The notes: generated by a model from the letters alone, not told the origin. DNA of 64,000 nt from an uncultured Candidatus Saccharibacteria bacterium (GCA_964618955.1 CAZUBO010000003.1:5250-69249); one strand, 5' to 3'; counted from the stretch's first letter, positions 1 through 64,000 are shown. Program-made: numbers and translations.

Positions 1-2430
1 TTCTTAAATGCAATTTCTAAATTAGAAAAAGCTAGTGGTAAGAAATTTGATGATGAAAAGAATCCTTTACTCGTCTCTGTTCGTTCCGGAGCTAAGTTCT
101 CTATGCCAGGTATGATGGATACTATTTTAAACTTAGGCCTTAATGATAAAACTGTTGAAGCATTAGCAAAGAAATCCAACAATCCTCGTTTTGCCTATGA
201 CTCTTATCGTAGATTCATTATGATGTTTTCTGATGTTGTTTTAGAAATCGACAAAAAAGAATTCGAAGAATTACTTCATAAGATAAAAGAAGCTAAAGGT
301 TTAAAATATGATTATGAAGTATCATATATTGATTTAAAAGATTTGATTGAAAAATACAAAAAGATGGTTAAAGCCAGAATTGGCAAAGACTTTCCTCAAG
401 ATGTTTTGACTCAACTCAAAATGGCTAGAGACGCTGTATTCAAAAGTTGGAACAATCCTAGAGCTATTACTTATCGTCAGATAAATAAAATTCCTGATAA
501 TTTAGGAACTGCTGTTAACGTTCAAGCTATGGTCTTTGGTAATATGGGTGACGACTGTGCTACTGGCGTAGGCTTTACTCGTAATCCTGCTACTGGCAAA
601 AAAGAATTCTATGGTGAATACTTGATCAACGCTCAAGGTGAAGATGTTGTTTCAGGTGTTCGTACTCCAAAGCCAATCACTAATTTGAAAAACGACATGC
701 CAAAAGTCTATAAACAATTAGTTGAAGTCACTACTCGTTTGGAGAAGCACTATAAAGACATGCAAGATTTTGAATTCACAATTGAAAATGATATCTTATA
801 CATGCTTCAAACTCGTAGTGGTAAAAGAAGTATCAGAGCTGGTATCAAAATTGCTGTTGAGATGGTTAAAGAAAAATTAATTACCATTAACGAAGCTTTA
901 ATGCGTATTGATCCTAATCAAATCAATCAACTTCTTCATCCAATCATTGATCCTAAGGCTAAATTAGATATTATCGCTAAAGGTCTTCCTGCTTCTCCTG
1001 GAGCTGGTACTGGTAAAGTTGTCTTTGATCCTGATGAAGCTGTTGCTATGTCAGAAGCTGGTGAAAAAGTTGTTTTGGTTAGAGATGAAACTTCACCTGA
1101 TGATATCAATGGTATGAATGTCGCCCAAGGTATTCTAACTGCCAGAGGTGGTATGACGTCTCACGCAGCTGTAGTAGCTCGTGGTATGGGCAAATGTAGC
1201 GTTGTTGGCTGTGAAGACATCAAAATCGACATGGCTAAAAAATGTTTTTCTGCTGGGGATATTATCATCAAAGAAGGTGACTATATCACCTTAGATGGAA
1301 ATTCCGGTAATGTCATTTTGGGCAAAGCTAATACTATCATGCCTGAGATTGAAGGCGAATTCAAAACCTTCATGAAATGAGCTGATGAGATTGCTAAATT
1401 AAAAGTCAGAGCTAATGCCGATATTCCTCGGGATGCTAAAGTTGCTAGAAGCTTTGGCGCTGAAGGTATTGGTCTTTGTCGAACAGAGCATATGTTCTTT
1501 GATCCTCAAAGATTACCATATATGCAAGAAATGATTTTAGCTGATACGGAAGACGAAAGAATCAAGGCATTAGCCAAACTTCTTCCATTCCAAAAAGCTG
1601 ATTTTTATGGCTTATTCAAAGAAATGAAGGGATTTCCAGTAACTATCAGAACTCTTGATCCACCACTACATGAATTCCTTCCAAAAACAACTGAAGCTGC
1701 TAAAGAATTATCTTCTATTATCAATGTTCCTTTTGAAAAGATAATTAAAAAATCTCAAGAGCTTCATGAGCAAAATCCAATGCTTGGCCATCGTGGTTGT
1801 CGTTTGGGTATTACTTATCCAGAAATAACCGAAATGCAAGTTCGTGCTATCATGTCTGCTGCGTGTGAGATATATAAAAAGGATAAGATCAAAGTTGTTC
1901 CCGAAATCATGATTCCTTTAGTAGGGAATGTCAAAGAATTTATTGATCAAAGAGAATTATCAATCAAAACAATTGAAGCTGTATTAAAAGAATACAAAGT
2001 AAAGATTGATTACAAAATTGGTACTATGATTGAAGTTCCTCGTGCTGCTTTGACAGCTGATGAAATTGCATCCCAAGCTGAATTCTTCTCTTTTGGAACT
2101 AACGACTTAACTCAAATGGGTATGGGCTTCTCTCGTGATGATGCTGGTAAGTTTATCAAAATCTATTTGAACAAAAAGATTTTGGAAAATGATCCATTCC
2201 AAACTTTGGATCAAACGGGTATTGGCAAATTAATTGTTATGGCAATTAATCTCGGAAGAAAAGTTAAGAAGGATTTGAAATGTGGTATCTGTGGAGAACA
2301 TGGCGGTGATCCTGAAAGTGTAAAATTCTGTCATCGTTCAAACCTCAACTACGTCTCTTGTTCACCTTATCGTGTTCCTGTTGCTAAACTAGCTGCTGCT
2401 CAAGCAGTAATTGAAGAAAAGAAGAAATAG
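1..2430 (+). CDS. ppdK: pyruvate, phosphate dikinase (5' end lies outside the window)
   Basis: Frame 1 is open from base 1. Motifs: SMPGMMDTILNLGLND, GGMTSHAAVVARGMG, LCRTEHMFF, GICGEHGGDP. Track ORFs 103-1380 and 1492-2430 share a frame and join through TGA 1378-1380. Confidence 0.95.
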
Positions 2431-2442
2431 CAATACAATACA

Positions 2443-2475
2443 AAACCCACTGAATTCATCAGTGGGTTTTTGGTT
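2443..2475. terminator. intrinsic terminator between convergent ppdK and the AAA ATPase gene
   Basis: 11-bp stem aaacccactga/tcagtgggttt followed by a T-run. Confidence 0.7.
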
Positions 2476-2490
2476 TTAATTTTTTGATAA

Positions 2491-3672
2491 CTATAAATCA
2501 AAAAAATTAATATATTTTGAATTTGTTTTGTCTATATCTTTATTATAATAAATATAGTTTAAATCAATCTTCGGATACGTTTCGCTAAATTTCGAATAAT
2601 TTTTAGGAACTATTTTAGAAATTTTAAATTTGCTTTCGTAAGCTATTTTATTATCAACTACAAAGTCTACTTCATGCTTATCAGCTGTGCCTCAGTAATT
2701 AATAGTTATCTCGTCATTAGTTTCCAATAGCTTTTTATAAATCATATTTTCTAAAATTTCGCCTTTATCATCTCTATGTTCTAATTTTTCGAAATTATTT
2801 AACAGAACATTTCGCAATCCGAAATCATTAAAATATATTTTATTCATTTTGGTAAGTTCCTTACGTAAATTATTAAAATACGGACTTACTAAATTAATAT
2901 GAAAAGATTTCCTCATGATATATAGAAAGTTGTTTATAATTGTTTTAGAAACGTTCAAAGTATTAGCTAGCTCGTTAAGATTTATCGTTTTGCCTATTTG
3001 GTCAGCCAACAAGACAAAAAGCTTATAAAAAATCTCGTCTTTTTGAATCCCAGCATCATCAATATCTCTTTTAGTATAGGCATAGGCAATTTCATGCAAA
3101 ATCATTTTTTTCTCTTCAGTATCTTCAGTTAGGATTACTCTTGGATATCCACCATAAGTAACATATTCATTCATTAATTCTTTTTTGTCGTTTGTATTTA
3201 AATCTTTAATCTTTAATTTCTTAGCTAGCAAGAATTCTTCAAATGAAAATACATTAAGGAAAAAAATTCTTTTTCTTCCCGCTAAAGAATCTTTAAATTT
3301 TCTGTCGATATAAAAAGCTGAAGATCCAGTTACAATTAATTTAATTTTTCCTTTGTATTTGTCATAATTGAATTTAAGAAAATTCGAAGGATTCTTTAAA
3401 TATTGTATTTCATCTATAAAAACATATTTTTTATCCTTTTCCAATCCATCAATAACAGTTATTAAATTATCAGGATGTTCGTCCAATTTAGCTAACAGAG
3501 TAGGGTCTTCTAAACTAAAAAAGAAGCATTGTTTGCCTTCTTTTTTTAGTTTCTGATACATATGAAAAAGCATGGTTGTTTTGCCAGTTTGCCTAGGGCC
3601 AGTCATTAATGCTATCTCATCTGTATCCAAATAGTCTCAAACAGCATTGTATATTGTACGTTTTATAAACAT
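2491..3672 (-). CDS. AAA+ ATPase of the DUF4143/COG1373 type
   Basis: Walker A GPRQTGKTT. C-terminal Y-W-x5-EVDFVV becomes visible only when TGA 2692-2694 is read through. N-terminus extended to ATG 3672 across a second TGA. Stop is TAG at 2491. Confidence 0.8.
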
Positions 3673-3732
3673 AGTGATTAATTAGTATTTTTGTATAGTT
3701 ATATATTATCAGATAATTTGTACTTTGTCAAT

Positions 3733-3771
3733 GCCAAAAGTCCGTTTTATCGGATAAAACGGACTTTTGGC
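3733..3771. repeat. perfect 17-bp inverted repeat with 5-nt loop in a divergent promoter region
   Basis: gccaaaagtccgtttta / taaaacggacttttggc; no flanking T-run. Confidence 0.8.
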
Positions 3772-3905: not shown

Positions 3906-5180
3906 ATGATTAGTTCAAAACCACCTTCTGGTATGAGAGATACTCTCCCAAATGCCTTAAGACAAAAACAAAGAATTATAAATCAAATTAAACAAATCTT
4001 CGAGAAGTTTAATTATGACCCTATTGATACTCCAGTTCTGGAACGTATCGAGGTTTTAAATGGCAAATTTAGCAGTGAAGAAGAAAACGATAAATTAATT
4101 TTTCAAATTCAAAAACGTGGAGATAAATCTGAAGAAGGTTGTGACCTTGGTCTTCGCTATGATCTTACTGTTCCGCTATCGCGCTTCTATACTGAATATC
4201 AAAATGACTTACCTAAAGTTTTCAAACGCTATTGTATTGATAAAGTCTGACGAGCTGAACGAGCTGGCCGTGGTAGATATCGTGAATTCTATCAATGTGA
4301 TATTGATACTATCGGCTCATCTTCTAATCTAGTTGAAGCCGAGACTTTCTTAGCTTTAGCGCAAGCTTTAAAATGCTTTGATTTAAAGAATCTTTCTTTA
4401 AAAATCAGCTCTCGTGATTTCTTGAAGAAATTCTTAGAAAGTTTTGGCATTACTGATTTAAAAACTTTTATGACTTGTCTTGATAAGCAAGATAAGATTG
4501 GTCTTGATGGTGTTTTGGACGAATTAAAATCAAAAAGTTTTAACGAATCTACTTCTAAAAATATCTTAGATACTTTAAGTAATGATTCTGTTTTTGAATC
4601 TTATTGTAATTCTAAGCCAGAAATTATGGCTGTTATTAATCAAGTCAATAATATCATTGATTTAGTAAAGCCTTCCCTAACAGACATTAATGTATATTTT
4701 TGTAAGACCTTAGTAAGAGGGTTTGATTACTATACTAGCACTATTTTTGAATTCTATAGTCCTGAATTAGAATCCACCATTGCTGGTGGTGGCAGATATG
4801 ATAGCCTAACTAGTATTTTCAATGGTAACAAAACTCCTGCTTGTGGAGGTTCTATTGGTATTGAAAGAATCTTTGGGCTATTAGAAGGTAAAGAAATTAA
4901 AAATGAAAAACAATCAGTTTTAATTGCTTTGTTCGACGAATCTATGAAGTCAGATTGTTTAGAATTATTAAATTACTTAATTCAAAACAATATTAATTCC
5001 GAAATATATTTAGAAGCTGATAAATTGAGCGATCAAATTAAATACGCTTTATCAAAAGGTTGTAAATATTTAATTATCTATGGCCCTGACGAAAAGCAAA
5101 AGGGAATAGTAACAATTAAGAATTTAGAAACTAAAGAACAGCAAGAAGTATCCAGAGATGATTTAAAAGATTACGATTGA
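3906..5180 (+). CDS. hisS: histidyl-tRNA synthetase
   Basis: Class II motifs GMRD, GRGRYREFYQCDID, GGGRYD, GGSIGIERI. Track ORFs 3906-4250 and 4422-5180 share a frame and join through TGA 4248-4250, which aligns to an aromatic position. Confidence 0.9.
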
Positions 5181-5197
5181 TAATTTCAAAAATTGAA

Positions 5198-5250: not shown

Positions 5251-5256
5251 TGTATT

Positions 5257-5490: not shown

Positions 5491-5497
5491 TATATTA

Positions 5498-5625: not shown

Positions 5626-7782
5626 TTATTCCATATGTAGCTTTTCTACGAATTCTTTGTATCTTTTCAAAAACAAAGGATATTTTTTTAATTCTGAATC
5701 GGTAGCAAATATCAATTTTGCTTCTTCTTGAATATCTTTTAGTAATTTTGAATCTTTTAAGGCTGACATTGCTAAGTCCGGGAAGCCTGATTGATTCTTT
5801 CCAAACATCTCTCCTGGTCCTCTAAGTTTTAAATCAATTTCCGCTAATTTAAAACCATCATTACAATCTACCATAGCATTTAATCTCTCTCTGGTTGTTT
5901 TACTATTAGATTCAGTATACAAAAAACAATATGATTGGTAATTCCCCCTGCCAACTCTACCTCGGAATTGATGTAATTGCGCTAAACCAAATCATTCTGT
6001 TCCCATAATTAGCATTATCGTTGCATTAGGAATATCAACTCCAACTTCAATAACTGAAGTTGATACTAGCAGATTAGTTTCATTCCTACTGAATTTATTC
6101 ATTACCAATTCTTTTTCTTTTGGTTTCATTTTTCCATGAAGCATTTCAATATTGAATTCTGGAAAGATCTTCTTCATGGTCTCAACTTCTTTTTTAACAG
6201 CCTTTACTTCTGAATTTAACATCTGCTCAAATGAAAAAAGATTTTTGCCTTTAACTTCTCCTTCTTCTATAACTTCTTCAATTCTTGGACAAATTACAAA
6301 TACTTGTCTTCCGGATTTAATTTCTTTTCTAATAAATTCAAACATTGGTCCTTCTTTGGATTTTGTAATAATCTTTGTTATTATTTTCTTCCTATTCTTT
6401 GGCATTTCATCCAATATCGATAAATCCAAATCTCCATAGATTGATAAAGCTAAAGTTCTTGGGATTGGAGTTGCTGTCATTGAAAGGAAATGAGGAATTA
6501 ATTCATTTTGCTTACTTAATAATTCCTTTCTTTGTTTAATTCCAAATCGATGTTGTTCATCTATTATTACTAATCCTAATTTTGAAAAGTCAATATTCTT
6601 TTGAATCAAAGCATGGGTTCCAATAACTAATCATTCAGTACCTTCTGAAATACTTTTTAGTAAGTATTCTTTAGTGACTTTACCTTCAATAAATCCATCT
6701 TTAATTCTAACTCCTTCGCCAGTCATTAAGGCAACTTTAATCTCAAAACCTTCTAAGTATTTAATAAGGTTTTGGAAGTGTTGTTTGGCCAATACTTCAG
6801 TTGGGGCCATGAAGGCCACTTGATAGCCTTGAGTTACTGTTAAGAGGGATACAATAATTCCAATCATAGTTTTACCTGATCCAACATCGCCTTCTAGCAG
6901 TCTATTCATTGGTGATCCTTTTTCCATATCTTGCATTATCTCTCAGATAGCTTTCTTCTGTGAAGCGGTTAGAATAAAAGGCAAAGTACTTAAGAATTTC
7001 TTTACTAATTCAACATCCGCTTTTATCTTTGGGGCTTTGTTTTTCGCCATCTTGTTTTTAATATGCATTAAATGAAGCTGAGTTAAAAGCATTTCTTCAA
7101 AGATAAATCTTTTTCTGGCTAATTCGGCTTCCTGAATTGTATTCGGAAAATGTATTTTGTTTATTGCTTCTTTAAAACTCAAAAGTTTGTTTCTTTTTAA
7201 AGTATCATTTGACAATGAATCAACAAATTCATTTTGAAATGAATCTAATAGTCTTTTAATATATGTTCTTAGCATTTTGGAACTTACCCCACTAGTCTCT
7301 GGATATACTGGAATCAATCTTCCAGTATGTTTTAGTGTTGATATATCCACTTCTTCATTCTCATCGCCTTCTAGTATTTCAAAAGCTGGGCTTTGAAAAA
7401 CAAAATGTTTGCCTTTAATTTTTGGTTTGCCTGATACCGTAATTACCGTGCCTTCTTTCAATTGTTTAGAAATGAATGGTTGATTAAATCAAACAATATC
7501 CGCTTTACCGCTCTCGTCAATAATCTTGCCTTCAGTTAAAAGCATATGTCTGTGATATGTTCGATAACTTTTTAGAGTTCCAACTTTACCAATGATTGTG
7601 GAATTTTCACCTTCAACTAATTCACTGATAGATTTAATATTTGTAAAATCTTGATATCTAAAAGGGAAATGTCATAAAAGATCTTTTATGGTATTTATAT
7701 TCAATGATTTTAATTTGTCGTTGTAATATTTTCCAACTCCATAGAGATTAGAAATATTGTCTGTTAATTTTATATCATTCAT
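5626..7782 (-). CDS. recG: ATP-dependent DNA helicase RecG
   Basis: Five track fragments plus 7672-7881 share one frame (2157 nt) and join through in-frame TGAs. Motifs: GDVGSGKT, DEQHRFG, TATPIPRT, QLHQFRGRVGRG, and a wedge region with FPFRYQD and V-W-FNQPF. Confidence 0.9.
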
Positions 7783-7843
7783 TTTTCTTTTTTTATATAT
7801 TTGTATTTTATCAGATTTTTCAATTTTTGTCATTTTTTTTTGA

Positions 7844-9233: not shown

Positions 9234-10169
9234 ATGCTTTTAAAAAAATTACTAACTGATTATTTAAATTTCTTAGAGATTGAAAAAAATCGCAGTATTA
9301 ATACTCGCGATAATTATGAACGTTATTTAATTCATTTTTTAAAATGACTTTCTAGTTATCTTGGCAAGAGCTGAGAGACTTTAATTCCTAAAGATATTTC
9401 TTATGATGCTTTACGCGAATACCGTTTGTTTTTAAATCGTGAATTAATTGATAATGGTGAGCAAAGAAAAAAAAATACCCAAGGCTACTATATCATTGCC
9501 ATTCGTAATTTCTTTAAGTATTTGATTCGTCGTGACGTTGAGATTGTCTCGCCTGATAGAATTGATTTACCCAAGACTAGTGATAGGGAGATTACTATAG
9601 TATCCGAAAGTGAATTAATTAGACTTTTAGAAGCTCCTGACTTATCAAGTTTGAAAGGTATTCGTGATAAAGCTATTTTAGAATTACTTTTTTCTACCGG
9701 CCTTCGTGTGTCCGAACTTTGCTCACTAAACAAAGATAGTATCAACTTCCAAACCGGCGAATTCCCGATAAGAGGAAAAGGTAGAAAGATTAGAATTGTC
9801 TTTCTGTCTGATCGTGCTAAGAAATATGTTGAAGATTGATTAAAAGCTCGAAAGAATATTGTTGATGAACCTTTGTTTGTTGGCTTACCTAATGTTAAAA
9901 GCAAAACCTATACTCGCTTAACTTCTCGCTCTATTGAGCGTATGATAAGATTCTATTCTATTAAAGCTGGTATTACTAAGAAAGTAGTTCCTCATACTCT
10001 AAGACATTGCTTTGCTACTGATTTGCTTCAGAATGGCGCTGATATTCGTTCCGTCCAATCAATGCTTGGGCATTCTTCAATTGCTACGACTCAGATCTAT
10101 ACCCATCTTACGGATCGTGCTTTAAAAGAAACTTATCGAAAATTCCATGGTAAAGGAATGCATAATTAA
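9234..10169 (+). CDS. XerC/XerD-type tyrosine recombinase
   Basis: N-terminal SAM-like domain; catalytic region with [33 protein letters not shown]. Three in-frame TGAs join 9234-9425, 9426-9839 and 9873-10169. Confidence 0.85.
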
Positions 10170-10200
10170 AAAAATTACCTTTTAAAAGGTAATTCAATTG

Positions 10201-10274
10201 TGCCTCCGGAAGGATTCGAACCTTCAACCTCATGGTCCGAAGCCATGCACTCTATCCAGTTGCGCTACGGAGGC
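10201..10274 (-). tRNA. tRNA-Arg (anticodon TCG)
   Basis: Hand-folded cloverleaf: acceptor gcctccg/cggaggc, anticodon loop ct-TCG-ga, T arm gaagg-ttcgaat-ccttc. Confidence 0.85.
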
Positions 10275-10327: not shown

Positions 10328-10852
10328 ATGAAAAAAATTAATTTAAATTTATTTTATAAAATTTACAAAAATCGTTCAAAAACTTTAAGTGTTGTTTCTT
10401 GAACTTTAAGTAACAAAGCTTTTTTGTTTTTGTTTTTTGGTATTATCTCTTTTGTTTTTTTAATTATAAAACATGATTGAAATTTAGTTTTTAAATTATC
10501 TTTTAATATTGTTTTAATTTTGTTTTTAGTTAAAATTGTTATCGATGATGTTATCAAGAAATATACCTATCATCCACGACCTTATTTAACTCAAACTGAT
10601 ATTGAGCCTTTAGGCAAAAAAGAACAGGGTAGTACTTCACCATCCGGTCATGTAACTGCTGTTACTGCTGCCGTCTTTACTCTTTGTTTTTATAGTCCTT
10701 GATTTGTTTTTCTTTTGCCTTTAATTCCTTTGATTATGTGATCCCGTGTATATAACGGTATGCATTGACCTTTGGATGTTTTTTTAGGATTAATTCTTGG
10801 AATTATCTTTTCAAACTTTAGTTATATGCTTGCTAGTTTGATTTTTAAGTAA
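10328..10852 (+). CDS. PAP2-family phosphatase (undecaprenyl-diphosphatase-like)
   Basis: Motifs KxxxxxxRP (KKYTYHPRP), PSGH and SRVYNGMH-W-PLDV; multi-pass membrane protein. Missed by the track because it contains five in-frame TGAs. Confidence 0.8.
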
Positions 10853-10894: not shown

Positions 10895-11881
10895 ATGGAC
10901 GACAAAAATATGGAATGTCCCTTTCTCATTTTTTCTGGTCGTAATTCTCAACCACTAACCGACAAAATTTGCGAATATTTAAAAGGCAAATTGCCTTTTG
11001 ATGTTTGTGGTCAAATCAATGCTGAGAATTTTTCTGATGGCGAGATTAGAGTTCAAATAAAGAACAATGTTCGTGGCAAAGAGGTTTTTGTGGTTCAATC
11101 CACCAATCCTCCAGCTGATAATCTTTTAGAATTACTTATCATTGTCGATGCTTTAAAAAGATCTTCCGCTGAAAAAATAACCGTCATTATTCCATATTTC
11201 GGTTATGCTCGCCAAGATCGTAAGACTCATGGTCGTGAACCAATCACTGCTAAATTAATGGCCAATGTCATTGAATCTGCCGGAGTTAACCGCGTAGTTT
11301 GTGTTGATTTACATGCCGGTCAAATTCAAGGATTCTTTAATGTTCCTATGGATGATTTAAAAACCGTTAAATTGTTTGCTGAACAGATTAAAAAAGATTT
11401 TTCAGATTTTAATAATTTAGTTATTGCTTCCCCTGACGCCGGTGGTGCCAAACGAGCTGAAAAATTAACTTCGTATATGCCCGGAAGTTCTTGGGTTATA
11501 TGTTATAAAAATCGTCACCATGATGGCAAAGATAGCGTTAGCGACTTTAAAATCTTAGGAGATGTTAAAGACAAAGATGTTGTTATTATTGACGATGTTA
11601 CTTCAACTTTTAGTACCATTAAAGGTGCCGCTACCGAGATATTAAATCAAGGTGCCAAAAGTGTTTCGGCTGGTATTGCCCACTGAGCTTGCCCAGACGA
11701 AGTTACCGATAGTCTTAAAGGTCATACTGATATTACTAATATATATATTACTAATACTTGTCCTAGAGCCACTTATCCAATATCATTGGGTGTTGCCAAA
11801 GAAATCGACGTATCCAAATTATTAAGTGAAACTATTCTACGTATTGTTAATCATGATTCTGTATCAGGGTTATTAGAATAA
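10895..11881 (+). CDS. prs: ribose-phosphate pyrophosphokinase
   Basis: Motifs FSDGEIRVQI, YFGYARQDRK, DLHAGQIQGFF and the PRPP loop VVIIDDVTST. Extended past TGA 11684-11686 to TAA 11879. Confidence 0.9.
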
Positions 11882-11936
11882 AAATTCAAAACACAAAAAC
11901 AACGTCCAAAATATGGTCGTTGTTTTTTGCTATCCG

Positions 11937-11965
11937 TTGAAAAAACAAAATTAATATGTTAATAT
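11937..11965 (+). promoter_or_regulatory. sigma-70-like promoter
   Basis: TTGAAA, 17-nt spacer, TAATAT. Confidence 0.5.
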
Positions 11966-11990
11966 ATTAATAGTTTTTGATCAATTACAC

Positions 11991-12236
11991 GGGGAAAAAG
12001 ATATTATATCCTGGCTTAATAAGTCTAGAAAGTGAAGAAGGAGGTAGTTCATCTATTAAAACGCGTGGCAGACATGTCCGTGTAACTCCGAATGGGGAAA
12101 CCTAATAAGCATTATTGCTTATTGCTCTGTCGGGTCTACTGTTTACCGAATTGGTTCCTAGTGGATGCCATATTGAAGAGAGCTTTCGAAATTAGATAAT
12201 ATCTTGCGGTGAGCGAGAGTTCACCGCACCCCCACC
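11991..12236 (+). ncRNA. candidate unclassified structured RNA (about 245 nt) with a tRNA-like end architecture
   Basis: 5' GGGG (11991-11994) pairs with CCCC (12229-12233). The 10-bp helix 11998-12007 pairs with 12196-12205. A 7-bp hairpin gcggtga/tcaccgc (12206-12227) lies between them. Own promoter; terminator at 12247-12277. Confidence 0.4.
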
Positions 12237-12246
12237 TTTAAAATTA

Positions 12247-12277
12247 AGAAGACCAACGTAAAAGGTCTTTTTATTTT
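12247..12277 (+). terminator. intrinsic terminator
   Basis: Stem aagacc/ggtctt followed by a T-run. Confidence 0.6.
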
Positions 12278-12333
12278 TCCCCTATTGAAAAATTACAATA
12301 AATGTAGTAGAATGATTTTATAAAATATTTGAA

Positions 12334-12407
12334 GCCCCCATAGCTCAGTTTGGTAGAGCAGTTGCCTCTTAAGCAAATGGTCGCAGGTTCAAATCCTGCT
12401 GGGGGCA
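12334..12407 (+). tRNA. tRNA-Lys (anticodon CTT)
   Basis: Acceptor gccccca/tgggggc, D arm gctc-agtttggt-agagc, anticodon loop ct-CTT-aa, T arm gcagg-ttcaaat-cctgc. Confidence 0.85.
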
Positions 12408-12448
12408 CAAAAGAAAAAACGCATTGAATGTGTTAAATTAAAAGAACT

Positions 12449-12476
12449 AGGGTTCCTAATATATATTAGGAACCCT
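12449..12476. terminator. perfect 28-nt palindrome, likely a bidirectional terminator
   Basis: agggttcctaatat/atattaggaaccct, between tRNA-Lys (+) and the convergent minus-strand gene. Confidence 0.55.
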
Positions 12477-12488
12477 TTCGAAAATATA

Positions 12489-12827
12489 TTAGATGTCGAT
12501 GATTGTCAACATCTCAATTGTATCAGCGGGGAAGCTTAAATGACACAAAGCTTTAAATTTTTCAAAGATAGTTTTTTCAATAATATGTCGGACAGTCTCT
12601 ATTTCAAAACTATCCATCGCGGTTGGACCTTTTTCTGAATGTAGAATTGTTACAATGTTCGGTTCATAAAATTGAATTTGAAGTTTATGAATCTTTTTTT
12701 GACAATTTATCATAAACTTTTTAAACATTTTCTCCATTTTCTCATTGTCACGTTTGTAAGATAAAGCACAAGGAGACAATGATACACATAATTTTAATAA
12801 ATATTGCTTACCTGGCTCTCCGTCCAT
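12489..12827 (-). CDS. hypothetical protein (112 aa)
   Basis: Start moved to MDGEPG because a GGAGG lies 7 nt upstream; no family recognised. Confidence 0.45.
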   Translation of the reverse strand: MDGEPGKQYLLKLCVSLSPCALSYKRDNEKMEKMFKKFMINCQKKIHKLQIQFYEPNIVTILHSEKGPTAMDSFEIETVRHIIEKTIFEKFKALCHLSFPADTIEMLTIIDI

Positions 12828-12929
12828 AAAAAACCTCCAATTGTTTTGCATAAATTACTAATTTAATACTAGCATATATTTATAAAAATTCAATACAAAA
12901 GGGTTCCCTTAATGGAACCCCAAAATATA

Positions 12930-13187
12930 TTATTTTTTTCATTTTTTCTCCTCGATTGGTTCTAAAATTAATTTCTCTTTTCCACAATTGCAATTGTGAA
13001 AGATATATGAATCTAGAGAATTTATCAAATCTTGATACGGGCCACCATATCCTATTAATAATACCATCTTGCCAGTTACGATATCTGGCAATTGCCAGCA
13101 CTTAATTTTGTCATTGAATTGTTTTCCGCGATTGATTGCCTTGGCCAGTTCTTTTGCAACCTTACCCTTTATCCTCCAAATTTTCAT
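12930..13187 (-). CDS. hypothetical protein (85 aa)
   Basis: GGAGG RBS before MKIWRIKG. TGA 12939-12941 is read through to TAA 12930. A terminator hairpin gggttcc/ggaaccc follows. Confidence 0.45.
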
Positions 13188-13390
13188 TATAAAACCCTCC
13201 AAAAATGAATTTTAACGCCATAAAAGAACAGTGTTCTTATCCTACCACACAGTCCCTCAAAAGACAAGTCTTTCTTTTTTTTTGACTTTTTCTTTTTTAT
13301 TTGCTAATATATCAGTACAAAAATACCCACTGAAAAACAGAGTATTTATTTCGTTTTTAAGCATTAAAGATACTTTTTGAAAAGAATGTT

Positions 13391-13918
13391 ATGACTAAAG
13401 AAAATTTTTCTAAAATTTATGACGATCATTCAAAAGAAATTTTTAACTTCCTGTATATCAGGACTCAGTCTTCTGACTTAGCAAGTGATATTGTGTCAGA
13501 AACTTTTTTCAAATTTTGAAAATCAAATTGTGATAAACCCGAAGACTATTTAAAAAATCCTCGTGCCTTTTTGTATCGTTTAGCCAAGAACTGCTTAGTT
13601 GATTCTTATCGTAAAAGCAATCATTATGAAATTATTTCAATTGATGCTAGCCTTGAAGATTCTGAAAATGAGAATGTTGCTGAAATTCAAATTCAGTCTA
13701 ATGAAGATATCAAGACTGATTATGCTGAATCCGAACAAAAACAAATGGTTTTAAATGCTATCAAGAAATTAAATCCTATGTATGCTAATGTTTTGATTTA
13801 TCATTACATTCAAGGCTTAGATTCTAAAGAAATTTCCATAATCATTGATCGTACTGAATCTAATACTAGAGTTATTATTCATCGTGCTTTAGAATCACTT
13901 AAAAAAGCATTAAAATAA
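13391..13918 (+). CDS. ECF-type sigma-70 family factor
   Basis: Region 2 (ETFFKF-W-K ... AFLYRLAKNCLVDSYRK) and region 4 HTH (LDSKEISIIIDRTESNTRVIIHRA). TGA 13517-13519 falls on the conserved region-2 Trp. Confidence 0.85.
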
Positions 13919-15034: not shown

Positions 15035-15113
15035 AATCAATCTTACGATTGATTTTTTTTAAATTCTACTTTATACTATTATCAATATGTTAATAAAAAT
15101 TCATTTTCAAATT

Positions 15114-21642: not shown

Positions 21643-21886
21643 ACCTTTGTCATTCTGTTAGAGCTTATATTCTGTAATTTCTAACAGAATGATAATGATT
21701 CTGAAAAAGCAAACACAAAACTCAGAAAAGTTCATTTTAATTCTGCTAATTGAGCCCAGTAATTAAGGGCTTACAATTAGACCGTTGGTCTTCTGTATAT
21801 CTAAAGAGAAGATGGTCGATAAATGGCTTGCGTTCATTTAAAGGATGAACAAAAACAATAATAAAAAATTTAAAATAATTTATATA

Positions 21887-23749
21887 ATGAAAAAATTACT
21901 CGCAATCGTTTTAGTTGCATCATTTGCTTTAGTTGGTGCCGTTAATGCTAGCGCAGTTACCGTTGAGGAATTACAAGCTCAAATAGCTACATTACTTCAA
22001 CAAATTGCTGCTCTATCAGGTACTACTACAACAACTACAACTACAACAACAACCGCTACTTTTTCAACCGACCTTTCACAAGGCATGACAAGTAACGATG
22101 TCAAAAATTTACAAGCAAGACTTGGTGTTAGCCAAACCGGTTACTTTGGTCCTTTGACCTTAGCAGCTGTTAAAGCTTATCAAGCTTCAAAAAATATTCC
22201 AGCTACTGGTTATGTTGGACCTTTGACAAGAGCTGCTTTAAATTCTTCAGCAACTCCAACTTCAACAGTTCCAGGTTGTGCTGCTGGTGCATTATTTAGT
22301 GCAACAACAGGTGCTTCTTGTACTGGTACAACTACCACTACAACAACTACAACAACCTCAACAACTACCGAAGGTACATTAACCGCCGTATCATCCCCAA
22401 CTTTTGTTGAAACAACATTAAAGAAAGGTGACACACAAAAAGCTATCTTAGCTACAAAATTGGAAGCTAAAAATTCCGATATCGCTATTAAGAGAATGGA
22501 TGTCGAAATTAGTGGTACTACAGTTCAACCATGAAAATCATTTTCATCTTTTGAATTGTATGTAAATGGAACCTTAATTAAAGGTATTCCAGCTATTAAA
22601 GAGAACTTCATTGAAAATAGCTATGCTATTAACTACACCTTAAGATTTGATAATATGTCCTTTACAGTTGCCAAAGGTACTACAGCTGATGTAGTGTTAA
22701 AGACAACAGTCCCATCAAATCCAGAAAATGTTACAGGAGTTTATACATTTAAATTCTTACAAACAAATTCTATTCGTGGTGTAGATACAGCAGGTATTGA
22801 TCAATATGCTCCAGCTACTACTCTTGCAAGCGCTGCATTTGACTCTTCAACTTGAACAGCTACAGCTGGCACATTAACTCTTTCTCTTAATGCTAATTCT
22901 CCAAAATTAGGATATATTTTTGGAAATACAACCGCAACAACATCTGATGTTGTACTAGGTTCAATAGATTTTAAGGGTGAGAATAGAGATACAACAATTA
23001 AGACATTAAAAGTTACTATGACTGATGCTGCTACTATTGCAAGCGCCGTCAAATTATATGATGGTTCTACATTATTAGCTAGTGTTGCTGGTGCTAACGG
23101 AGAGATCACTTTCTCTAACTTAGCTATCTTAATTGCTAAAGATACAACCAAGACTTTAACACTCAAGGCTGATCTTAAACCTATTGCAGGTGGATTAATT
23201 GGTGGTTCCATCTTAGGAACAATCACAGCTAACGCTTCTAAAGTTGTTGCCGTTGATTCCAACGATGATGTAGCTACAATTACAGCCGGTACAATTGCTA
23301 CAAAAGCATTGACCGCTTATGTCAAAGCTCCAGTTATTACTTTAGTTTCAACAAACATTGTTAAAACTACACAAGCTGGATCTTCTGATATTGCTGATGC
23401 TACAATCACATTTAATATCACTGCTACTGGTGGAGATATTTATTTGAAGAAAGCAGGTAACTTAACATCCGATACTGATAATGCTCCTGCCGCTGAAGGA
23501 TATAACTATACATCAACAGCCGACGCTTTCGATGGCAATTATTATATCATCAGAAGTGGTGAAACAAAATCAGTTACTGCTACAGGTCATTTAACTGGCG
23601 CAGATGCATTTGTTAAGATGTACTTGAAGGACTTCAAGTGAAATATTACCAATGCTACAGGTGATGCTACAGAAGTTCAAGTTACAACTTCAACTTATGA
23701 TTTGAGCACTTTCGTAACAAGCTCAATCTGATTAGAAACACTTCCTTAG
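21887..23749 (+). CDS. secreted peptidoglycan-binding surface protein (620 aa)
   Basis: Signal peptide; coiled VEELQAQIATLLQQIAAL; two poly-Thr linkers; PG_binding_1-like LQARLGVSQTGYFGPLTLAAVKAYQ and a second half repeat; beta-rich C-terminal region. Four in-frame TGAs. Confidence 0.75.
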
Positions 23750-26217: not shown

Positions 26218-26778
26218 ATGGAAGACCAAAATATACAAAATATAATACAATTCAAACAAGGCAATCCTAATGCTTTTAATATTTTAGTAAAAGACAATTT
26301 AAAATCAGTTTTAAACTTTGTTTATCGGTATATTTATGATACTGAATTAGCAGAAGATATTACTCAAGAAGTTTTTATCAAAGTTTGAAAAAATATATCA
26401 AAATTTGATACTTCCAAGAACTTCAAACCTTGATTATTCAAAATTGCCAGAAATACTGCTTTGGATTTTATTAAAAAAAGAAAATTAATTCCATTTTCAA
26501 GTTTTGAAAATGATAATGAAGAAAATCATTTTATCAATAATTTAGAAGATCAATCCAAAACTCTTTTAGAAGAAATTAATCTTCAAGAACAAAAAGAGTT
26601 CTTAAATGACTTTCTTCAAGAGCTCAAACCAAACCAGCAATTAGTTTTCTTCTTGTATTACTATGAAGAACTGACTTTCAAAGAGATTTCTGAAACTTTA
26701 AGTATTTCCATAAATACCATTAAAAGTCGTCATCTTCGAGGTCTTGAAAAATTAAAAGCCATAATGCACCAAAATTAA
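26218..26778 (+). CDS. ECF-type sigma-70 family factor
   Basis: QEVFIKV-W-K ... FKP-W-LFKIARNTALDFIKKRK (region 2) and LTFKEISETLSISINTIKSRHLRG (region 4). Both TGAs (26386, 26431) fall on conserved Trp positions. Confidence 0.85.
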
Positions 26779-29334: not shown

Positions 29335-29357
29335 CTATTAATATCTAAAACTATACA

Positions 29358-30035: not shown

Positions 30036-30039
30036 TTTT

Positions 30040-31263
30040 ATGCTAATTTCCGACTTAATTCAAGAAACTTATTCTGCTATCTTTGCTAACAAAGTCAGAT
30101 CTGGTCTTACTATTTTAGGTATTGTCATTGGTATTGGTTCAGTTGTAGCTATGATTTCTATTGGTCAAGGCGCCAAAGGTAGTATTGAAAAAAGTATTCA
30201 ATCTATTGGCTCTAATTTAATTATGGTCTATCCTGGTTCCCAACAAAAAGTTGGTACTCAGGTTAGAGGTGGTTTTGGTTCAGCTCAAACTTTAACCAAA
30301 GCTGATGCCGAGGCTATCGAAAAAGAAGTTTCTAATATTGAATATGTTGCTCCAGAAATATCTAAACGCTATCAAATAACTTCCAAGGGAACCAATAGTA
30401 ATGTTAGTGTAGTTGGTGTTACTTCAGTCTACAATACTGTAAAAAATATTGAACTTGATTCTGGATCTTTTGTATCCGATCAACAGCTGAATAGCTTATC
30501 AAAAGTTGCAGTTTTGGGACCAAATACCAATACAGAACTTTTCGGTGAAGGCATTAATTCTATTGGTAAAAAAATTCGTATCAATAGAATTGATTTTACC
30601 ATTATTGGTATTACCAAAGCCAAAGGAGGTACTGGCTTTGGTAGTCAAGATGATATTGTATATATTCCTTTGACTACTGCTCAAAAGTTTTTAACTGGTA
30701 AAGACTATGTTTCTACTATCAATGTTCAAACTATAGATCAAAAGTCAATGGCACAAGCCCAAGAAGATATTACTTCTTTGCTTCTAGCTCGTCATGATAT
30801 CTACAATGCCGATTTAGCTGATTTTACTGTATATAATCAAAATGATATTGTTGCCGCAGCTTCGTCAGTTACCAATACTTTTACCGTTCTTTTAGCTGCT
30901 ATAGCTAGTATTTCACTATTAGTTGGCGGCATTGGTATAATGAATATGATGCTAACTTCAGTTGCTGAGCGCACTAACGAAATTGGTCTTCGTAAATCCA
31001 TTGGTGCCAAAAAACAAGATATCAATTTGCAATTTTTGGCCGAATCAACCCTTCTAACAATTGTCGGTGGTATTCTTGGAATAATTTTTGGTTGAATTGC
31101 TGCTTTTTGTATGACTTACTTTGCTAAAATCACTACCAGTGTTTCCATTTCTTCAATTCTTCTAGCTTTTGGTGTATCTTTTGTCATTGGTCTTGCTTTT
31201 GGCTATTATCCTGCTTCTAGAGCTGCTAATTTAAATCCAATAGACGCTTTAAGAAGACAATAA
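30040..31263 (+). CDS. MacB/FtsX-type ABC permease
   Basis: MacB periplasmic domain plus FtsX motifs GGIGIMNMMLTSVAERTNEIGLRKSIGA. Extended past TGA 31093-31095; C-terminal YYPASRAANLNPIDALRRQ. Confidence 0.85.
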
Positions 31264-47810: not shown

Positions 47811-47825
47811 TTCTAAATTTGCACT

Positions 47826-48548
47826 ATGTCATTAATTACAATCAAAAATTTAACCAAAATCTATTCCAGTGAAGGTATTGATACCAATGCCTTAAACGGT
47901 GTTAATCTTAATATCTCTGAGGGGGAGTTTGTAGCTATCATGGGGCCTTCTGGATCTGGTAAGTCTACCTTGTTACAAATCCTTGGCTGTTTAGAGCGTA
48001 TTACAACTGGTCAATATTTTTTTGAAGACAAAGAATTAAATACCTATACTGATGATGAATTGGCTAATATTCGTAATCGTAAGATGGGGTTTGTTTTTCA
48101 ATCTTTTAATTTATTACCTCGTTTAACAGTTTTTGAAAATGTTAAGTTACCCCTAATCTATACTGAAGAGATGAAAGAAGTTGAAAAATGCAATCGCGCT
48201 AAGAAATTGATCTCTCTAGTTGGTTTAGAAGAAAGAAGTAATTACAAATCTACCAAATTATCTGGTGGTCAAAAACAAAGAGTCGCTATTGCTAGAGCTC
48301 TAATTAATGAACCTAAAGTTATCTTTGCCGATGAACCTACTGGTAGTTTGGATTCAAAATCTGGTGAGACTGTATTACGTTTTTTACAAGATTTAAATGA
48401 TTCCGGGAAGACTATCATTCTTGTTACTCACGAATCCGAAGTAGCTGAGTCAGCCAAAAGAATCATTCATATCAAAGATGGTCTTATCGATAAGGATGAG
48501 CTTGTGCTTAATCGTCGTATTATTGCTTCTCAAGGTTTTAATAAATAA
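47826..48548 (+). CDS. MacB/LolD-type ABC ATPase (second copy)
   Basis: GPSGSGKST, LSGGQKQR, IFADEPTGSLD. Confidence 0.9.
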   Translation: MSLITIKNLTKIYSSEGIDTNALNGVNLNISEGEFVAIMGPSGSGKSTLLQILGCLERITTGQYFFEDKELNTYTDDELANIRNRKMGFVFQSFNLLPRLTVFENVKLPLIYTEEMKEVEKCNRAKKLISLVGLEERSNYKSTKLSGGQKQRVAIARALINEPKVIFADEPTGSLDSKSGETVLRFLQDLNDSGKTIILVTHESEVAESAKRIIHIKDGLIDKDELVLNRRIIASQGFNK

Positions 48549-48557
48549 TTTTTTAAT

Positions 48558-49796
48558 ATGAATATCAAAGATAATATTAAAATGGCCTATAAAGATATTA
48601 TAGCGTATAAATCTCGTTCAGTTCTAACTGTACTAGGTATTGCTATTGGTATTACTGCCATTATCTTAGTTATGGCTATTGGTAATAGCGCTAAGAAGTC
48701 CATAACTAGCCAAATTCAAAGTTTAGGACCAACTAATGTATATATTATTCCTGGTAAGATGTCCGAGATGATGCAGGGTGGTGGTTCTGGCCAAGATAGT
48801 TTAAAAGACAAAGATTTAGATGATTTGAAAAAGAAATCTAATGTTCCGAATCTAGTAAATGTTGTTCCGATCATTTCTAATATGGGGAATGCCAGCTTTG
48901 AATCAGAAGATTATCGTGTTACCATAATCGGCAGTGGTCCGGAAGCTTTTGATCTAATGAAATTAAAAATTATTGAAGGTTCGATATTTATGCAAGAAGA
49001 TGTCGATAGCATGTCTTCTGTTGCTGTTATTGGTTTTAAAGTCAAAGATAAGCTTTTTGGGTCCGACGATGCTATTGGCAAAAAGATTAAATTAAAAGAA
49101 AAATATTTTAGAGTTATTGGTGTTACTGAGGCTAAAGGTCAGGGAATGGGTGGTGTAAATTATGATAATACTGTTACCGTACCCTATACTACATTACAAA
49201 GAAAAATTCTTGGTATTAAATATTTTCAAGAATTAATTGTTAAGATTGATACTGAAGCTAATATTAAAACTGCTATTTCTGATATGGAATTAGTTCTTAG
49301 GAATAATCATAACATTAATGATCCTTCCAAAGATGACTTTTCAATTCAAACTCAAGAAGACGTTGTAAAATCAGTTAATAGCATTTTAGGGGTTTTAACT
49401 ATCTTACTTTCGTCAGTAGCAGCTATCTCTTTAGTCGTTGGTGGTGTCGGGGTTATGAATATGATGTTGACTTCCGTTACTGAAAGAACCCGAGAAATTG
49501 GTCTTCGTAAAGCTCTGGGGGCTACGAATAAACATATTCTTTATCAATTCTTAACTGAGGCAATTCTCTTAACTTTTGGTGGTGGGCTTTTTGGAATCTT
49601 CTTTGGTTTTGTTCTAAGTTTGGGATTAATTACAGCATTTAATATATCTGGAACTTTTGATTTTGTTTTTTCTTTTCCTTTTTCCGGAGCTTTTATGGGG
49701 GTGTTGGTTTCTAGTATTGTTGGTTTTACTTTCGGTATTTACCCAGCTTACCAAGCTTCTAAGAAAAGCCCAATGGATGCTCTGCGATATGAATAG
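48558..49796 (+). CDS. MacB/FtsX-type ABC permease (second copy)
   Basis: GGVGVMNMMLTSVTERTREIGLRKALGA; YPAYQASKKSPMDALRYE. Confidence 0.9.
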   Translation: MNIKDNIKMAYKDIIAYKSRSVLTVLGIAIGITAIILVMAIGNSAKKSITSQIQSLGPTNVYIIPGKMSEMMQGGGSGQDSLKDKDLDDLKKKSNVPNLVNVVPIISNMGNASFESEDYRVTIIGSGPEAFDLMKLKIIEGSIFMQEDVDSMSSVAVIGFKVKDKLFGSDDAIGKKIKLKEKYFRVIGVTEAKGQGMGGVNYDNTVTVPYTTLQRKILGIKYFQELIVKIDTEANIKTAISDMELVLRNNHNINDPSKDDFSIQTQEDVVKSVNSILGVLTILLSSVAAISLVVGGVGVMNMMLTSVTERTREIGLRKALGATNKHILYQFLTEAILLTFGGGLFGIFFGFVLSLGLITAFNISGTFDFVFSFPFSGAFMGVLVSSIVGFTFGIYPAYQASKKSPMDALRYE

Positions 49797-49903: not shown

Positions 49904-50548
49904 ATGAAAAATAAAATATATATCTATTTCTCTTTAGCCTTAATTATTCTAAGCTTTTGCTTGGGAAGTATAGCTTATCCACTTTTGCCTTCTAGAATAG
50001 CTTCTCATTGAAACTATTTAGGTCAAGTCGATGGTTATTCTTCAAAGTTTTGGGGTATATTTCTATTACCAATAGTAATGCTTATTGCTTTTGTTTTTAT
50101 GAAATTTTTTCAAAAACTAGATCCTAAATCAGAAAATATTAAAAAATTTGAAACAAGCTATAACAGTTTTCTTTTTGTTTTCAATATTTTCTTTTTTGTT
50201 ATCTTTTCGTTTACTTTACTTTGAAGTTTAGGTATTTATTTGTATATCAATAAATTAATGGCTTTGTTGTTAGCCTTTTTGTTTTATTTCGTTGGCAATC
50301 TTCTCAAAGTTACCCAACAAAACTATTTTATTGGTATTCGCACTCCTTGAACTCTTCATAGCGAAATTGTTTGAAACAAAACTAATGCTTTAGGTGGTAA
50401 GCTTTTTCAAGTTGTAGCGGGTTTAAGTTTGATTGGTTTGCTTTATCCTAATTATTGATTAGCTTTAGTTTTCATTCCTTTGTTTTTTGTTATATTCTAT
50501 ATCTACATTTATTCTTATCTTGAATTTAAAAAACTTCAAAATCATTAA
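49904..50548 (+). CDS. SdpI/YhfL-family membrane protein (DUF1648 + SdpI)
   Basis: IASH-W-NYLGQVDGY and FIGIRTP-W-TLHSEIV-W-NKTN. Absent from the track because of six in-frame TGAs. Confidence 0.7.
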
Positions 50549-51620: not shown

Positions 51621-51692
51621 TCCGCGGTAGTTGAGTGGTACAACGCCTCCCTGTTAAGGAGGATTTCGTAGGTCCGAGTCCTACCCGCGGAG
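51621..51692 (+). tRNA. tRNA-Asn (anticodon GTT)
   Basis: Acceptor tccgcgg/ccgcgga, anticodon stem cctcc/ggagg with loop ct-GTT-aa, T arm gtagg-tccgagt-cctac. The overlapping minus-strand track ORF 51547-51831 is spurious. Confidence 0.85.
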
Positions 51693-51726
51693 CTAGCACA
51701 CATTTTAAATTCAAGGAGGTCCTATA

Positions 51727-56331: not shown

Positions 56332-56333
56332 AT

Positions 56334-61419: not shown

Positions 61420-61548
61420 AATATTATTGAAGAGAAAAATCGGAAATTCCAATTTTAGGTTAAAGCTCTATTCGAAAAAGAAATTTGAACTATTAGAAAT
61501 TTCCTAATAGTTGCAAAATAACTTAATAAATACTTAAAAGTTATTGTT

Positions 61549-62235: not shown

Positions 62236-62310
62236 CTCTTAGTACTGTTTATTTTTTAATATTGTGATATAATATATTTAATAATAAAACCAATTTTATT
62301 TTTTGTTATT

Positions 62311-62880
62311 ATGCCTAATTGTAAAAAAATTTGTGTTTTTATCGACGCATCTAATGTTTGAGAGGTTCAAAAGACTAAAGGAAGATTTTTTGACTATGAA
62401 AAATTGCAAAAATTTCTTATAAAAAACTTTAGTGCCTTAGAATTAAAGGTTTTTTATTATACTGCTTATCCTAAAGAAGGAACTAGAAAATATAATTTAG
62501 ACGGAAAACATAAGTTTTATACATTTCTTAACAAAGGGTTAGGATTTATTGTTCGTAAAAAAGAATTAAAAAGAATACACGTAGTCACTGGTGATGGACA
62601 GTCAATTGAATAAAAAGGTAATATGGACGTAGAGATAACGATAGATGCTATGTATTATAGTTCACAATATGACGAAGCAATATTTTTCTCTGGTGACTCT
62701 GATTTCATGGCTCTGGTAACTCATTTAAGGTTGCAAGGTAAAAAAGTATATATTTTTTCGTCAAAAAACAATGTCTCGGAGGAACTAAGGACCGGCGCAG
62801 ATGGATATTACAATATTTTAGATAATAATATTGGAAATATATGGGGTAGAGAGCTTAAACACAGGCCAAATAAATATTAA
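62311..62880 (+). pseudogene. NYN-domain (LabA/DUF88-like) gene interrupted by an in-frame TAA
   Basis: VFIDASNV ... then TAA at 62611-62613 directly before KGNMDVEITIDAM ... FFSGDSDF ... GKKVYIFS. Both halves share one frame. Confidence 0.55.
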
Positions 62881-63028
62881 CTAAAAAGTCACCCTTCGTT
62901 AGAAAGGTGGCCCTAGGATGTAATACCCTCCCACTTATACAAGTGGAAGACAATAGAAGTATACAAAATTTTATATAAAAAGTCAATAGGCCATCCTATA
63001 AATTAATCAAAATATTAAACTAATCATT

Positions 63029-63475
63029 ATGCGTAAAAAAATCATTTTTGTTATAGTTCTTTGTATTTTTTTATTTCTTATTTTCTATTATCTCAAACCT
63101 TTTAAAAACAATACTATTGATTCTACTACCACAACAACTGCATTAGTAGTTGGAGGTGATGAGGATAGTCATGGTTGCTTAGTTGGTGCTGGCTATAGCT
63201 GATGCCCTAGTGCTAAAGCGTGCCAACGCTTATGAGAAGACACTTGTTCTCCTGATTTTATCAAAACCGTTCATTTTGTAGAAACTAAAGATGAAAAAGT
63301 AATTTTCTATGAAGAACCTGGCAAACCAGCTATTACTAGTAGATATATTTTTCATGGCAAATGCAAAGTCAATAATACTTATTGTAGTGAATTAGAAATT
63401 AAAAGTGGTACTAAAGCCGATATCAAGGGTATCACCCTTGATAATGAGATTTTAATAACTGATATTAAATTCTAA
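63029..63475 (+). CDS. small secreted Cys-rich protein
   Basis: Signal/anchor, poly-Thr, then GGDEDSHGCLVGAGYS-W-CPSAKACQRL-W-EDTC. Confidence 0.55.
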
Positions 63476-63477
63476 TT

Positions 63478-64000
63478 ATGGGAAGACATAAAAAACCAAA
63501 ACATCCAAATGGAATTTGATGAATTGTTTTTATTGTTTTTTGTGTATTTTGCTATTTAGTCTATAAAGAATATAGTAATAAATATTTCAAAACTACCACA
63601 ACCACTAAGGCTGTAGCTAGTTCTACTAAACCTAATTCAATAACTTATTCTGCTAAAGTTACTAAAGACGAACAAGATAAATATATAATTAATATATCTT
63701 ATCCTTATTTTAAAATTAATTTTGTTGATAATAATATTGGGAATTTTATTGATTCTTCAGTTTCTAATTTCAAAAATGATATTAAGGATTATGAAGTCTT
63801 TAATGATAATAAGAATAGCTTAGATATCTTTTTTGAACCATATTTAATTTCTGCTAATACTATTAGTTTAAAGTTTGTAACTAGTACCTATACTGGTGGA
63901 GCTCATGGTAATCAAATAATTACTACTAAGAATTTTGATTTAACTTCTAATAGGGAAGTGGAACTAAAAGACTTATTCAAAAAAGATGGTTATTTAAATA
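63478..64000 (+). CDS. membrane-anchored DUF3298/DUF4163-like protein (3' end lies outside the window)
   Basis: N-terminal anchor; YTGGAHGN ... FDL ... ELKDLFKK pattern. Confidence 0.6.

Follow-up and report, generated by a model that had tools for sequence, protein, structure and literature searches.

Introduction

Two reassignments of the UGA stop codon have been described in Patescibacteriota, the bacteria of the Candidate Phyla Radiation (CPR): to glycine (translation table 25) in the class JAEDAM01 (Absconditabacterales/SR1 and BD1-5, formerly 'Gracilibacteria'), and to tryptophan (translation table 4) in the family JAKLIH01 of the order UBA6257, class Minisyncoccia (formerly Parcubacteria/Paceibacteria). 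The reassignment to tryptophan was reported in April 2026 in Nucleic Acids Research for four JAKLIH01 genomes, in which UGA accounts for 0% of stops, 150-303 Codetta columns speak for tryptophan, a tRNA(UCA) is found in two of the four and release factor 2 (RF2) in none; in the sister families, UGA makes up 3.9-9.7% of stops (PMC13092985). Here we report the analysis of a 64,000-nt stretch of DNA (positions 1..64000, considered without regard to strand; GCA_964618955.1, CAZUBO010000003.1:5250-69249, deposited as an uncultured Candidatus Saccharibacteria bacterium), hereafter the window, in which TGA has to be a sense codon for the genes to be intact. The window is almost certainly a chromosomal segment of an uncultivated CPR bacterium (Patescibacteriota, Minisyncoccia, UBA6257), in or beside the family JAKLIH01, that uses table 4, with UGA coding for tryptophan and UAA and UAG retained as stops.

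The family was also covered by the gTranslate preprint of May 2026, which includes 12 JAKLIH01 genomes and ten of the genus GCA-2747955, most with a tRNA-Trp(UCA) and none with prfB, and which presents Patescibacteriota as the first phylum using tables 4, 11 and 25 (bioRxiv 10.64898/2026.05.24.727570). Neither study found RF2 in any of the JAKLIH01 genomes it analysed; standard-code relatives are reported to possess it (PMC13092985; bioRxiv 10.64898/2026.05.24.727570). Two general points, that one phylum reassigned UGA twice, to two amino acids, and that code 4 extends beyond wall-less or intracellular bacteria, were already made in these 2026 papers. Other surveys give a narrower picture. The accessible part of the 2021 Codetta screen lists UGA-to-Trp only for Mycoplasmatales/Entomoplasmatales and four insect symbionts, and UGA-to-Gly for Absconditabacteria and Gracilibacteria, with no other Patescibacteria listed there; a review of the phylum from May 2026 mentions UGA-to-Gly alone, and a preprint on a k-mer screen does not mention Patescibacteriota.

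Among the known systems, JAKLIH01 is like the window in the recoded codon and its meaning, clade, low GC content, stop usage (TAA far above TAG, no TGA) and about 20 kb of common gene order; it differs in that tRNA(UCA) and the loss of RF2 are documented for the published genomes, whereas the window organism is known from 64 kb. The table 25 class JAEDAM01 has the phylum, the codon, the low GC content and a reduced genome in common with the window, but the window lineage reads UGA as Trp, not Gly, and belongs to the class Minisyncoccia, so that the reassignment event is independent. Other table 4 users, namely the Mycoplasmatales/Entomoplasmatales, the reduced endosymbionts Hodgkinia, Zinderia, Nasuia, Stammera and Ca. 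Providencia siddallii, the Verrucomicrobiota symbionts of ciliates and genera of the Eggerthellaceae, resemble the window in the meaning of UGA, in an AT-rich reduced genome and in the excess of UGA over UGG, and tRNA-Trp(UCA) together with RF2 loss would be expected as in them. However, they represent independent origins in different phyla, and the window organism is not an insect or ciliate endosymbiont and, unlike the mollicutes, possesses cell-wall genes (PG_binding_1, PAP2). The reassignment is thus already known for JAKLIH01, and the window adds a clade member, not a new phenomenon. A reading of the window made from its sequence alone had implied novelty, which the two 2026 reports (PMC13092985; bioRxiv 10.64898/2026.05.24.727570) do not leave standing; its view that tryptophan rather than glycine in a wall-bearing CPR organism would be noteworthy is upheld, albeit previously described for JAKLIH01.

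Results

In-frame TGA codons of the window

For comparison with related genomes, we scanned the GTDB species representatives with RecG and used the best 80 loci, 75 of them standard-code and five recoded (L001, L002, L003, L012 and L018; RecG identity 69-78%). The GC content of the window is 30%. When non-overlapping open reading frames (ORFs) of at least 80 aa were called with TAA and TAG as the sole stops, 69 ORFs tiled the window, 53 of which contain at least one in-frame TGA, and together they hold 123 TGA and 37 TGG codons. After dubious short ORFs had been dropped and each gene trimmed to its first ATG, 58 genes remained, with 111 in-frame TGAs distributed across 46 of them (about 80% of genes). 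The part of the window covered by ORFs of at least 150 aa increases from 52% under code 11 to 83% with TGA as sense, while in the 75 standard-code relatives the same two values are mostly a few points apart, with a maximum of about 12. These figures bear out the sequence-only reading, which had TGA as a sense codon throughout and estimated by hand that about 50 of roughly 75 genes need TGA read-through; all nine TGA codons that it had singled out are in frame, in the sequence contexts it described.

Along the genes, the distribution of in-frame TGAs is even, with 7 to 15 per gene decile, and the largest TGA-free piece of a TGA-bearing gene covers 60% of the gene length (median). Such an even spread is the behaviour of a sense codon and would not be seen with readthrough sites or with pseudogenes in decay. 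No UGA serves as a terminator in the window, where the stops are 42 TAA and 12 TAG. The rejoined genes had been claimed earlier to end in TAA or TAG; this agrees with the counts, though it is a consequence of how the ORFs were defined, and independent support comes from homologue alignments that continue past the TGAs and reach the usual end of the protein (residue 735 in RecG, residue 808 in PpdK).

TGG is still in use, as had been noted, with 37 occurrences in the 69-ORF set. TGG constitutes 0.15% and TGA 0.59% of codons, so that TGA represents about 80% of the tryptophan codons of the window; their sum (0.74%) compares with 1.1-1.2% tryptophan in the standard-code relatives. When all 64 codons were compared with conserved columns, every codon with data decoded as in the standard code except TGA. 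The codon CGG is nearly unused, at 0.3 per 1000 codons, and none of the conserved columns bears on what it encodes. Further sense-codon reassignments (CGG, CGA, AGG, ATA) were rejected, given the normal decoding of all codons with data and the rarity of CGG.

Amino acid assigned to TGA by profile substitution

The amino acid was assessed by a Codetta-like test, in which all TGAs were swapped for one amino acid at a time and the resulting proteins searched against Pfam with hmmscan, with eight residues tried (W, Y, F, L, C, S, R and G). For a concatenation of six proteins containing 18 TGAs (set 1), the scores summed over seven TGA-bearing Pfam families were 614.6 bits with W, 567.9 with L, 558.9 with C, 552.1 with S, 548.1 with R and 538.3 with G. 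Tryptophan was the top residue in all seven families and exceeded glycine, the lowest of the eight residues, by 76 bits. Tyrosine and phenylalanine were scored on a shorter construct lacking the histidyl-tRNA synthetase family, where the six-family sums were 473.0 bits for W, 449.1 for Y, 443.3 for F and 400.4 for G.

Among individual families, Sigma70_r2 (both sigma factors summed) scored 100.4 bits with W and 75.0 with G, SdpI 54.0 and 36.5, DUF1648 61.1 and 53.0, and FtsX of the MacB-type permease 74.2 and 70.6, respectively; W was above G by 6.7 bits in the PAP2 family (PF01569) and by 3.7 bits in tRNA-synt_His at TGA 4248-4250. In a second set (RecG, Prs, MacB, a radical-SAM protein and a HATPase protein; 15 TGAs), W reached 396.5 and G 386.9 bits, the gain coming chiefly from the RecG wedge domain (+11 bits).

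Conservation of TGA positions among relatives

Window proteins with X at each TGA were aligned to the ORFs of the 75 standard-code loci, which yielded 22 aligned TGA positions. Tryptophan is the commonest homologous residue at ten of them, about five more are mainly aromatic, and glycine has the majority at none. The clearest case is the recG gene (5626..7833, minus strand), with five TGAs starting at 7672, 7489, 6943, 6631 and 5992: residue 115 (TGA 7489-7491) is W in 75/75 standard-code homologues, residue 297 is W in 33 and F in 29, and residue 54, like residue 297, is in most cases W or otherwise aromatic. Both extracytoplasmic function (ECF)-type sigma factors (Sigma70_r2/r4) follow the same pattern. 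In the first (13391..13918, plus strand), TGA 13517-13519 in region 2 corresponds to W in standard-code homologues; in the second (26218..26778, plus strand), TGA 26386-26388 corresponds to W in 3/5 and TGA 26431-26433 to W in 5/5. The MacB-type permease (MacB_PCD + FtsX; 30040..31263, plus strand) has W in 3/3 standard-code homologues at TGA 31093-31095, and a position in the XerC/D-type tyrosine recombinase (9234..10169, plus strand; TGAs starting at 9345, 9372 and 9837) is likewise W.

The five recoded relatives have the gene order of window positions 1 to about 21,000 in common with it and were aligned to it codon by codon. Opposite the window TGAs, these relatives carry TGA 49 times, TGG 13 times and TAT, TAC, TTT or TTC eight times, and not a single GGN codon was found there. 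UGA and UGG thus behave as synonymous among close relatives. In ppdK (1..2430, plus strand, 5' end cut by the window), TGA 1378-1380 is also TGA in all four relatives bearing the gene (L001, L003, L012 and L018; 79-88% aa identity), and both TGAs of an AAA_14/DUF4143 ATPase (2491..3672, minus strand; 3637-3639 and 2692-2694 in plus-strand coordinates) are kept as TGA in L001 and L018. In the tyrosine recombinase, 9345 and 9837 are TGG or TGA in the relatives; 9372 mostly faces Tyr codons, with GAA in L003. The sequence-only reading of TGA as Trp, and not stop or Gly, is therefore supported by Pfam substitution, by standard-code homologues and by TGA/TGG exchange, and the profile alignments do not place the TGAs mainly on Gly or on unconserved columns. 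UGA in the window is a sense codon that occupies Trp and aromatic positions and exchanges with UGG in close relatives.

Phylogenetic position and extent of the recoding

All 80 RecG loci are from Patescibacteria and carry Parcubacteria/Paceibacteria-type or generic CPR labels; on this single-gene evidence, no SR1 or Gracilibacteria label occurs among the best 80. A clear long-ORF gain with TGA as sense, together with TGA/TGG exchange, was observed only in the window and in L001, L002, L003, L012 and L018. Five further loci, L004-L008 (about 53% RecG identity, including metagenome-assembled genome (MAG) UBA6257), look standard by coding density, and so do nearly all remaining RecG loci, in which the gain is small or conserved genes examined have no in-frame TGAs. 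In a neighbor-joining RecG tree (81 sequences, 696 columns, 50 bootstraps), the six recoded sequences are monophyletic in 50/50 bootstraps, with the window nested with L001, L012 and L018, and the recoded clade is sister to the standard-code L004-L008 in 44/50. In these sister loci, TGA ends 7 of 70 genes (about 10%). The recoding is thus clade-wide and derived, with sister lineages that use the standard code and have rare UGA stops.

The relative L018 is contig JAKLIH010000006.1, with 60-88% protein identity to the window and a common gene order from ppdK to the sigma factor. The assembly to which it belongs, with the whole-genome shotgun prefix JAKLIH01, is the one that lends the GTDB family JAKLIH01 its placeholder name. 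By RecG phylogeny and synteny, the window groups with this assembly, apart from other UBA6257 lineages. It is distinct from every relative retrieved, and the best RecG identity of 78% suggests that it is probably another species or genus of the family JAKLIH01. A CPR-type organism with a cell wall had been guessed from the sequence alone, and both parts of that guess hold, given the 80/80 Patescibacteria among RecG relatives and the presence of PG_binding_1 and PAP2 domains.

Discussion

Points against the reassignment to tryptophan and the family placement

Several observations weigh against the proposed reading. A few TGAs lie on non-Trp columns, namely RecG residues 614 and 401 and the Prs codon at 11684. 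RecG residue 614 (TGA 5992-5994, minus strand) falls in the ERFGL motif, where 66/75 homologues have Arg; since other members of the recoded clade have Ser or Cys there, the conserved Arg has been lost clade-specifically. The column of RecG residue 401 is variable, with Asp/Asn. In the ribose-phosphate pyrophosphokinase gene prs (10895..11881, plus strand), TGA 11684-11686 is at the H-[G/P] position of PRPP synthetases, where G beats W by 4.2 bits in Pfam, and it is the sole TGA leaning toward Gly/Pro in homologues. The claim that no TGA sits on an invariant Gly accordingly holds in general, with this codon as a soft exception. The position is Pro in PDB homologues, TGA in L001 and TTT in L003; Gly was rejected there, and with Pro in the PDB homologues and Phe in a clade member the position is simply divergent. 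These off-column TGAs are individual divergent positions with no pattern toward another amino acid. The margin of W over G in the second protein set is just about 10 bits. The family assignment comes from one gene tree, synteny and 60-88% protein identity, and not from a bac120 placement; of the 120 bacterial marker genes, the window contains just a handful. Finally, no tRNA(UCA) was found in the 64-kb window, whose tRNAs are Arg(UCG), Lys(CUU) and Asn(GUU) only, and the fragment is uninformative on prfB, so that the decoding machinery has to be taken from the literature on its relatives. By analogy with the published family analyses and with other code-4 bacteria, UGA and UGG would both be read by a tRNA-Trp(UCA), and RF2 would have been lost.

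Alternative explanations

The alternative that survives best retains tryptophan and changes only the decoder: UGA would be read without a dedicated tRNA(UCA), with tRNA-Trp(CCA) taking over by means of a structural variant or relaxed wobble, a solution proposed for Ca. Zinderia. It draws on the presence of tRNA(UCA) in just two of the four JAKLIH01 genomes (PMC13092985) and 'mostly' in the gTranslate set, and on its absence from the window; none was found in ten related loci scanned either. A missing tRNA gene is weak evidence, however, because all these genomes are incomplete MAGs. Moreover, the tRNA-Trp(CCA) reported for the family is of the ordinary kind, its anticodon stem having 5 bp and not the 4 bp of the variant (PMC13092985), and genomes with a cognate UCA tRNA typically show a TGA share like the one seen here, about 80% of Trp codons. 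We consider this route unlikely. The same low likelihood applies to the combined case in which the organism truly lacks tRNA(UCA) and reads UGA with a modified or altered tRNA-Trp(CCA), while the window may come from a genus not yet described, which would widen the recoded clade; if the tRNA were truly missing, a second, RF2-loss-driven route to code 4 would exist inside one family.

A second alternative is that UGA is ambiguous, mainly Trp and still a stop in some genes or contexts. The observation behind it concerns the histidyl-tRNA synthetase gene hisS (3906..5183, plus strand; TGAs 4248-4250 and 5178-5180), whose 3' end at 5178-5183 reads ...GAT TGA TAA, with TGA as the final sense codon followed by the TAA stop. 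This arrangement might be what is left of an ancestral TGA stop that had TAA as a backup. Yet the histidyl-tRNA synthetase of the relatives ends in Phe at or near the last TGA codon of the window gene, the published analysis of the family found 0% UGA stops and no RF2, and in no window gene would a TGA stop cut off a C-terminal extension. Ambiguous decoding is therefore highly improbable.

Translation of UGA as glycine (table 25), as in the class JAEDAM01 (Absconditabacterales, BD1-5), would suit a low-GC CPR host, and it was the sole recoding described in the phylum until 2026. Counting TGA with GGN also raises glycine from 5.1% to 5.7% of codons, nearer to the 6.0% of relatives, and one TGA (Prs, 11684) is on a Gly/Pro column. 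Against this, glycine scored worst of the eight residues in set 1; no aligned position has a Gly majority, and close relatives show no TGA-to-GGN exchange against 13 TGA-to-TGG exchanges; tryptophan would sink to 0.15%; and the nearest RecG relatives belong to the Minisyncoccia order UBA6257, not to JAEDAM01. The glycine assignment is effectively refuted.

The standard code, with the in-frame TGAs explained as pseudogene stops, sequencing or assembly errors, programmed readthrough or selenocysteine, has nothing more in its favour than being the default expectation for bacteria, and its probability is negligible given the number of genes concerned (ppdK, hisS, recG and prs among them), the retention of the positions as TGA or TGG in five independent assemblies, the even distribution of TGAs along genes, homology running through them, no gene needing a TGA stop, and, for selenocysteine, a score of Cys (as its proxy) 56 bits under W in set 1. 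Selenocysteine recoding was rejected on the 111 UGAs in 46 genes and this Cys score, with no SECIS (selenocysteine insertion sequence) search made.

Probable evolutionary scenario and annotation

With UGA assigned to tryptophan, a stepwise origin of the recoding is likely. UGA stops would first have turned rare in an AT-rich, reduced genome, which would have made RF2 dispensable; a tryptophan tRNA would then have captured UGA, and AT pressure would have turned most UGG codons into UGA, the form that now makes up most Trp codons of the window. The low frequency of TGA among stops of the standard-code sisters (7/70) fits such a codon capture where UGA stops were already rare.

In practical terms, annotation of the contig requires table 4, and neither table 11 nor table 25, although the latter is tempting for a member of the CPR. 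Default code-11 gene calling shreds JAKLIH01 genomes, and public annotations of such genomes are wrong for this reason (PMC13092985).

Other genes and features of the window

The gene content described from the sequence alone agrees with Pfam, which recovers PAP2, the two ECF-type sigma factors, MacB_PCD + FtsX and PG_binding_1. The PAP2 phosphatase (10328..10852, plus strand; PF01569) has five TGAs, starting at 10400, 10478, 10700, 10739 and 10766. A predicted secreted protein (21845..23749, plus strand; four in-frame TGAs) contains a PG_binding_1 domain, which is evidence for a cell wall. A DUF1648/SdpI membrane protein (49904..50548, plus strand) has five TGAs, starting at 50009, 50222, 50348, 50372 and 50456. 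Two MacA/MacB-type ABC efflux operons (27679-31263 and 46200-49796) each comprise a periplasmic adaptor, an ATPase and a MacB_PCD/FtsX permease; a MacB ATPase at 47826-48548 is TGA-free.

The tRNA and Rfam scans identified tRNA-Arg(UCG) at 10200..10274 (minus strand), tRNA-Lys(CUU) at 12334-12408 and tRNA-Asn(GUU) at 51621-51693. The 1.4-kb region 11882-13360 is gene-poor, with no convincing gene besides tRNA-Lys(CUU). A non-coding RNA in this region was not supported, since Rfam gives no match there beyond tRNA-Lys even at E values up to 1, and conservation in the relatives is limited to the tRNA with its immediate flanks and, in L001 only, about 70 nt upstream of the sigma gene.

Three two-gene cassettes (17556-18945, 35444-36771 and 36904-38293) encode AbiEi antitoxin-like and AbiEii nucleotidyltransferase toxin-like proteins; the Pfam AbiEii match is from 18169-18945, the one cassette gene run, and the other cassettes were called paralogous by eye. 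Two very large, putatively secreted proteins (15087-17231, 714 aa, and 38392-41733, 1113 aa) have a high content of Cys and of Thr/Asn/Ser and resemble each other in their N-terminal regions. The only one of the two submitted to Pfam gave no match; the protein at 15087-17231 has a 28%-identical homologue in L018.

In the RecG proteins of L012 (about 11305-11737) and L018 (about 11300-11780), an in-frame insert of about 145-160 aa separates helicase motif II (DEQHRFG) from motif III (SMTATPIPRT); the window RecG does not have this insert. The insert contains the sequence ...HDEIGRFCRERQYGDLL...ADFIIE.KIIVELK... and resembles a small PD-(D/E)XK or GxxExxY-type domain; it might have entered this essential helicase as a mobile domain or in the manner of an intein.

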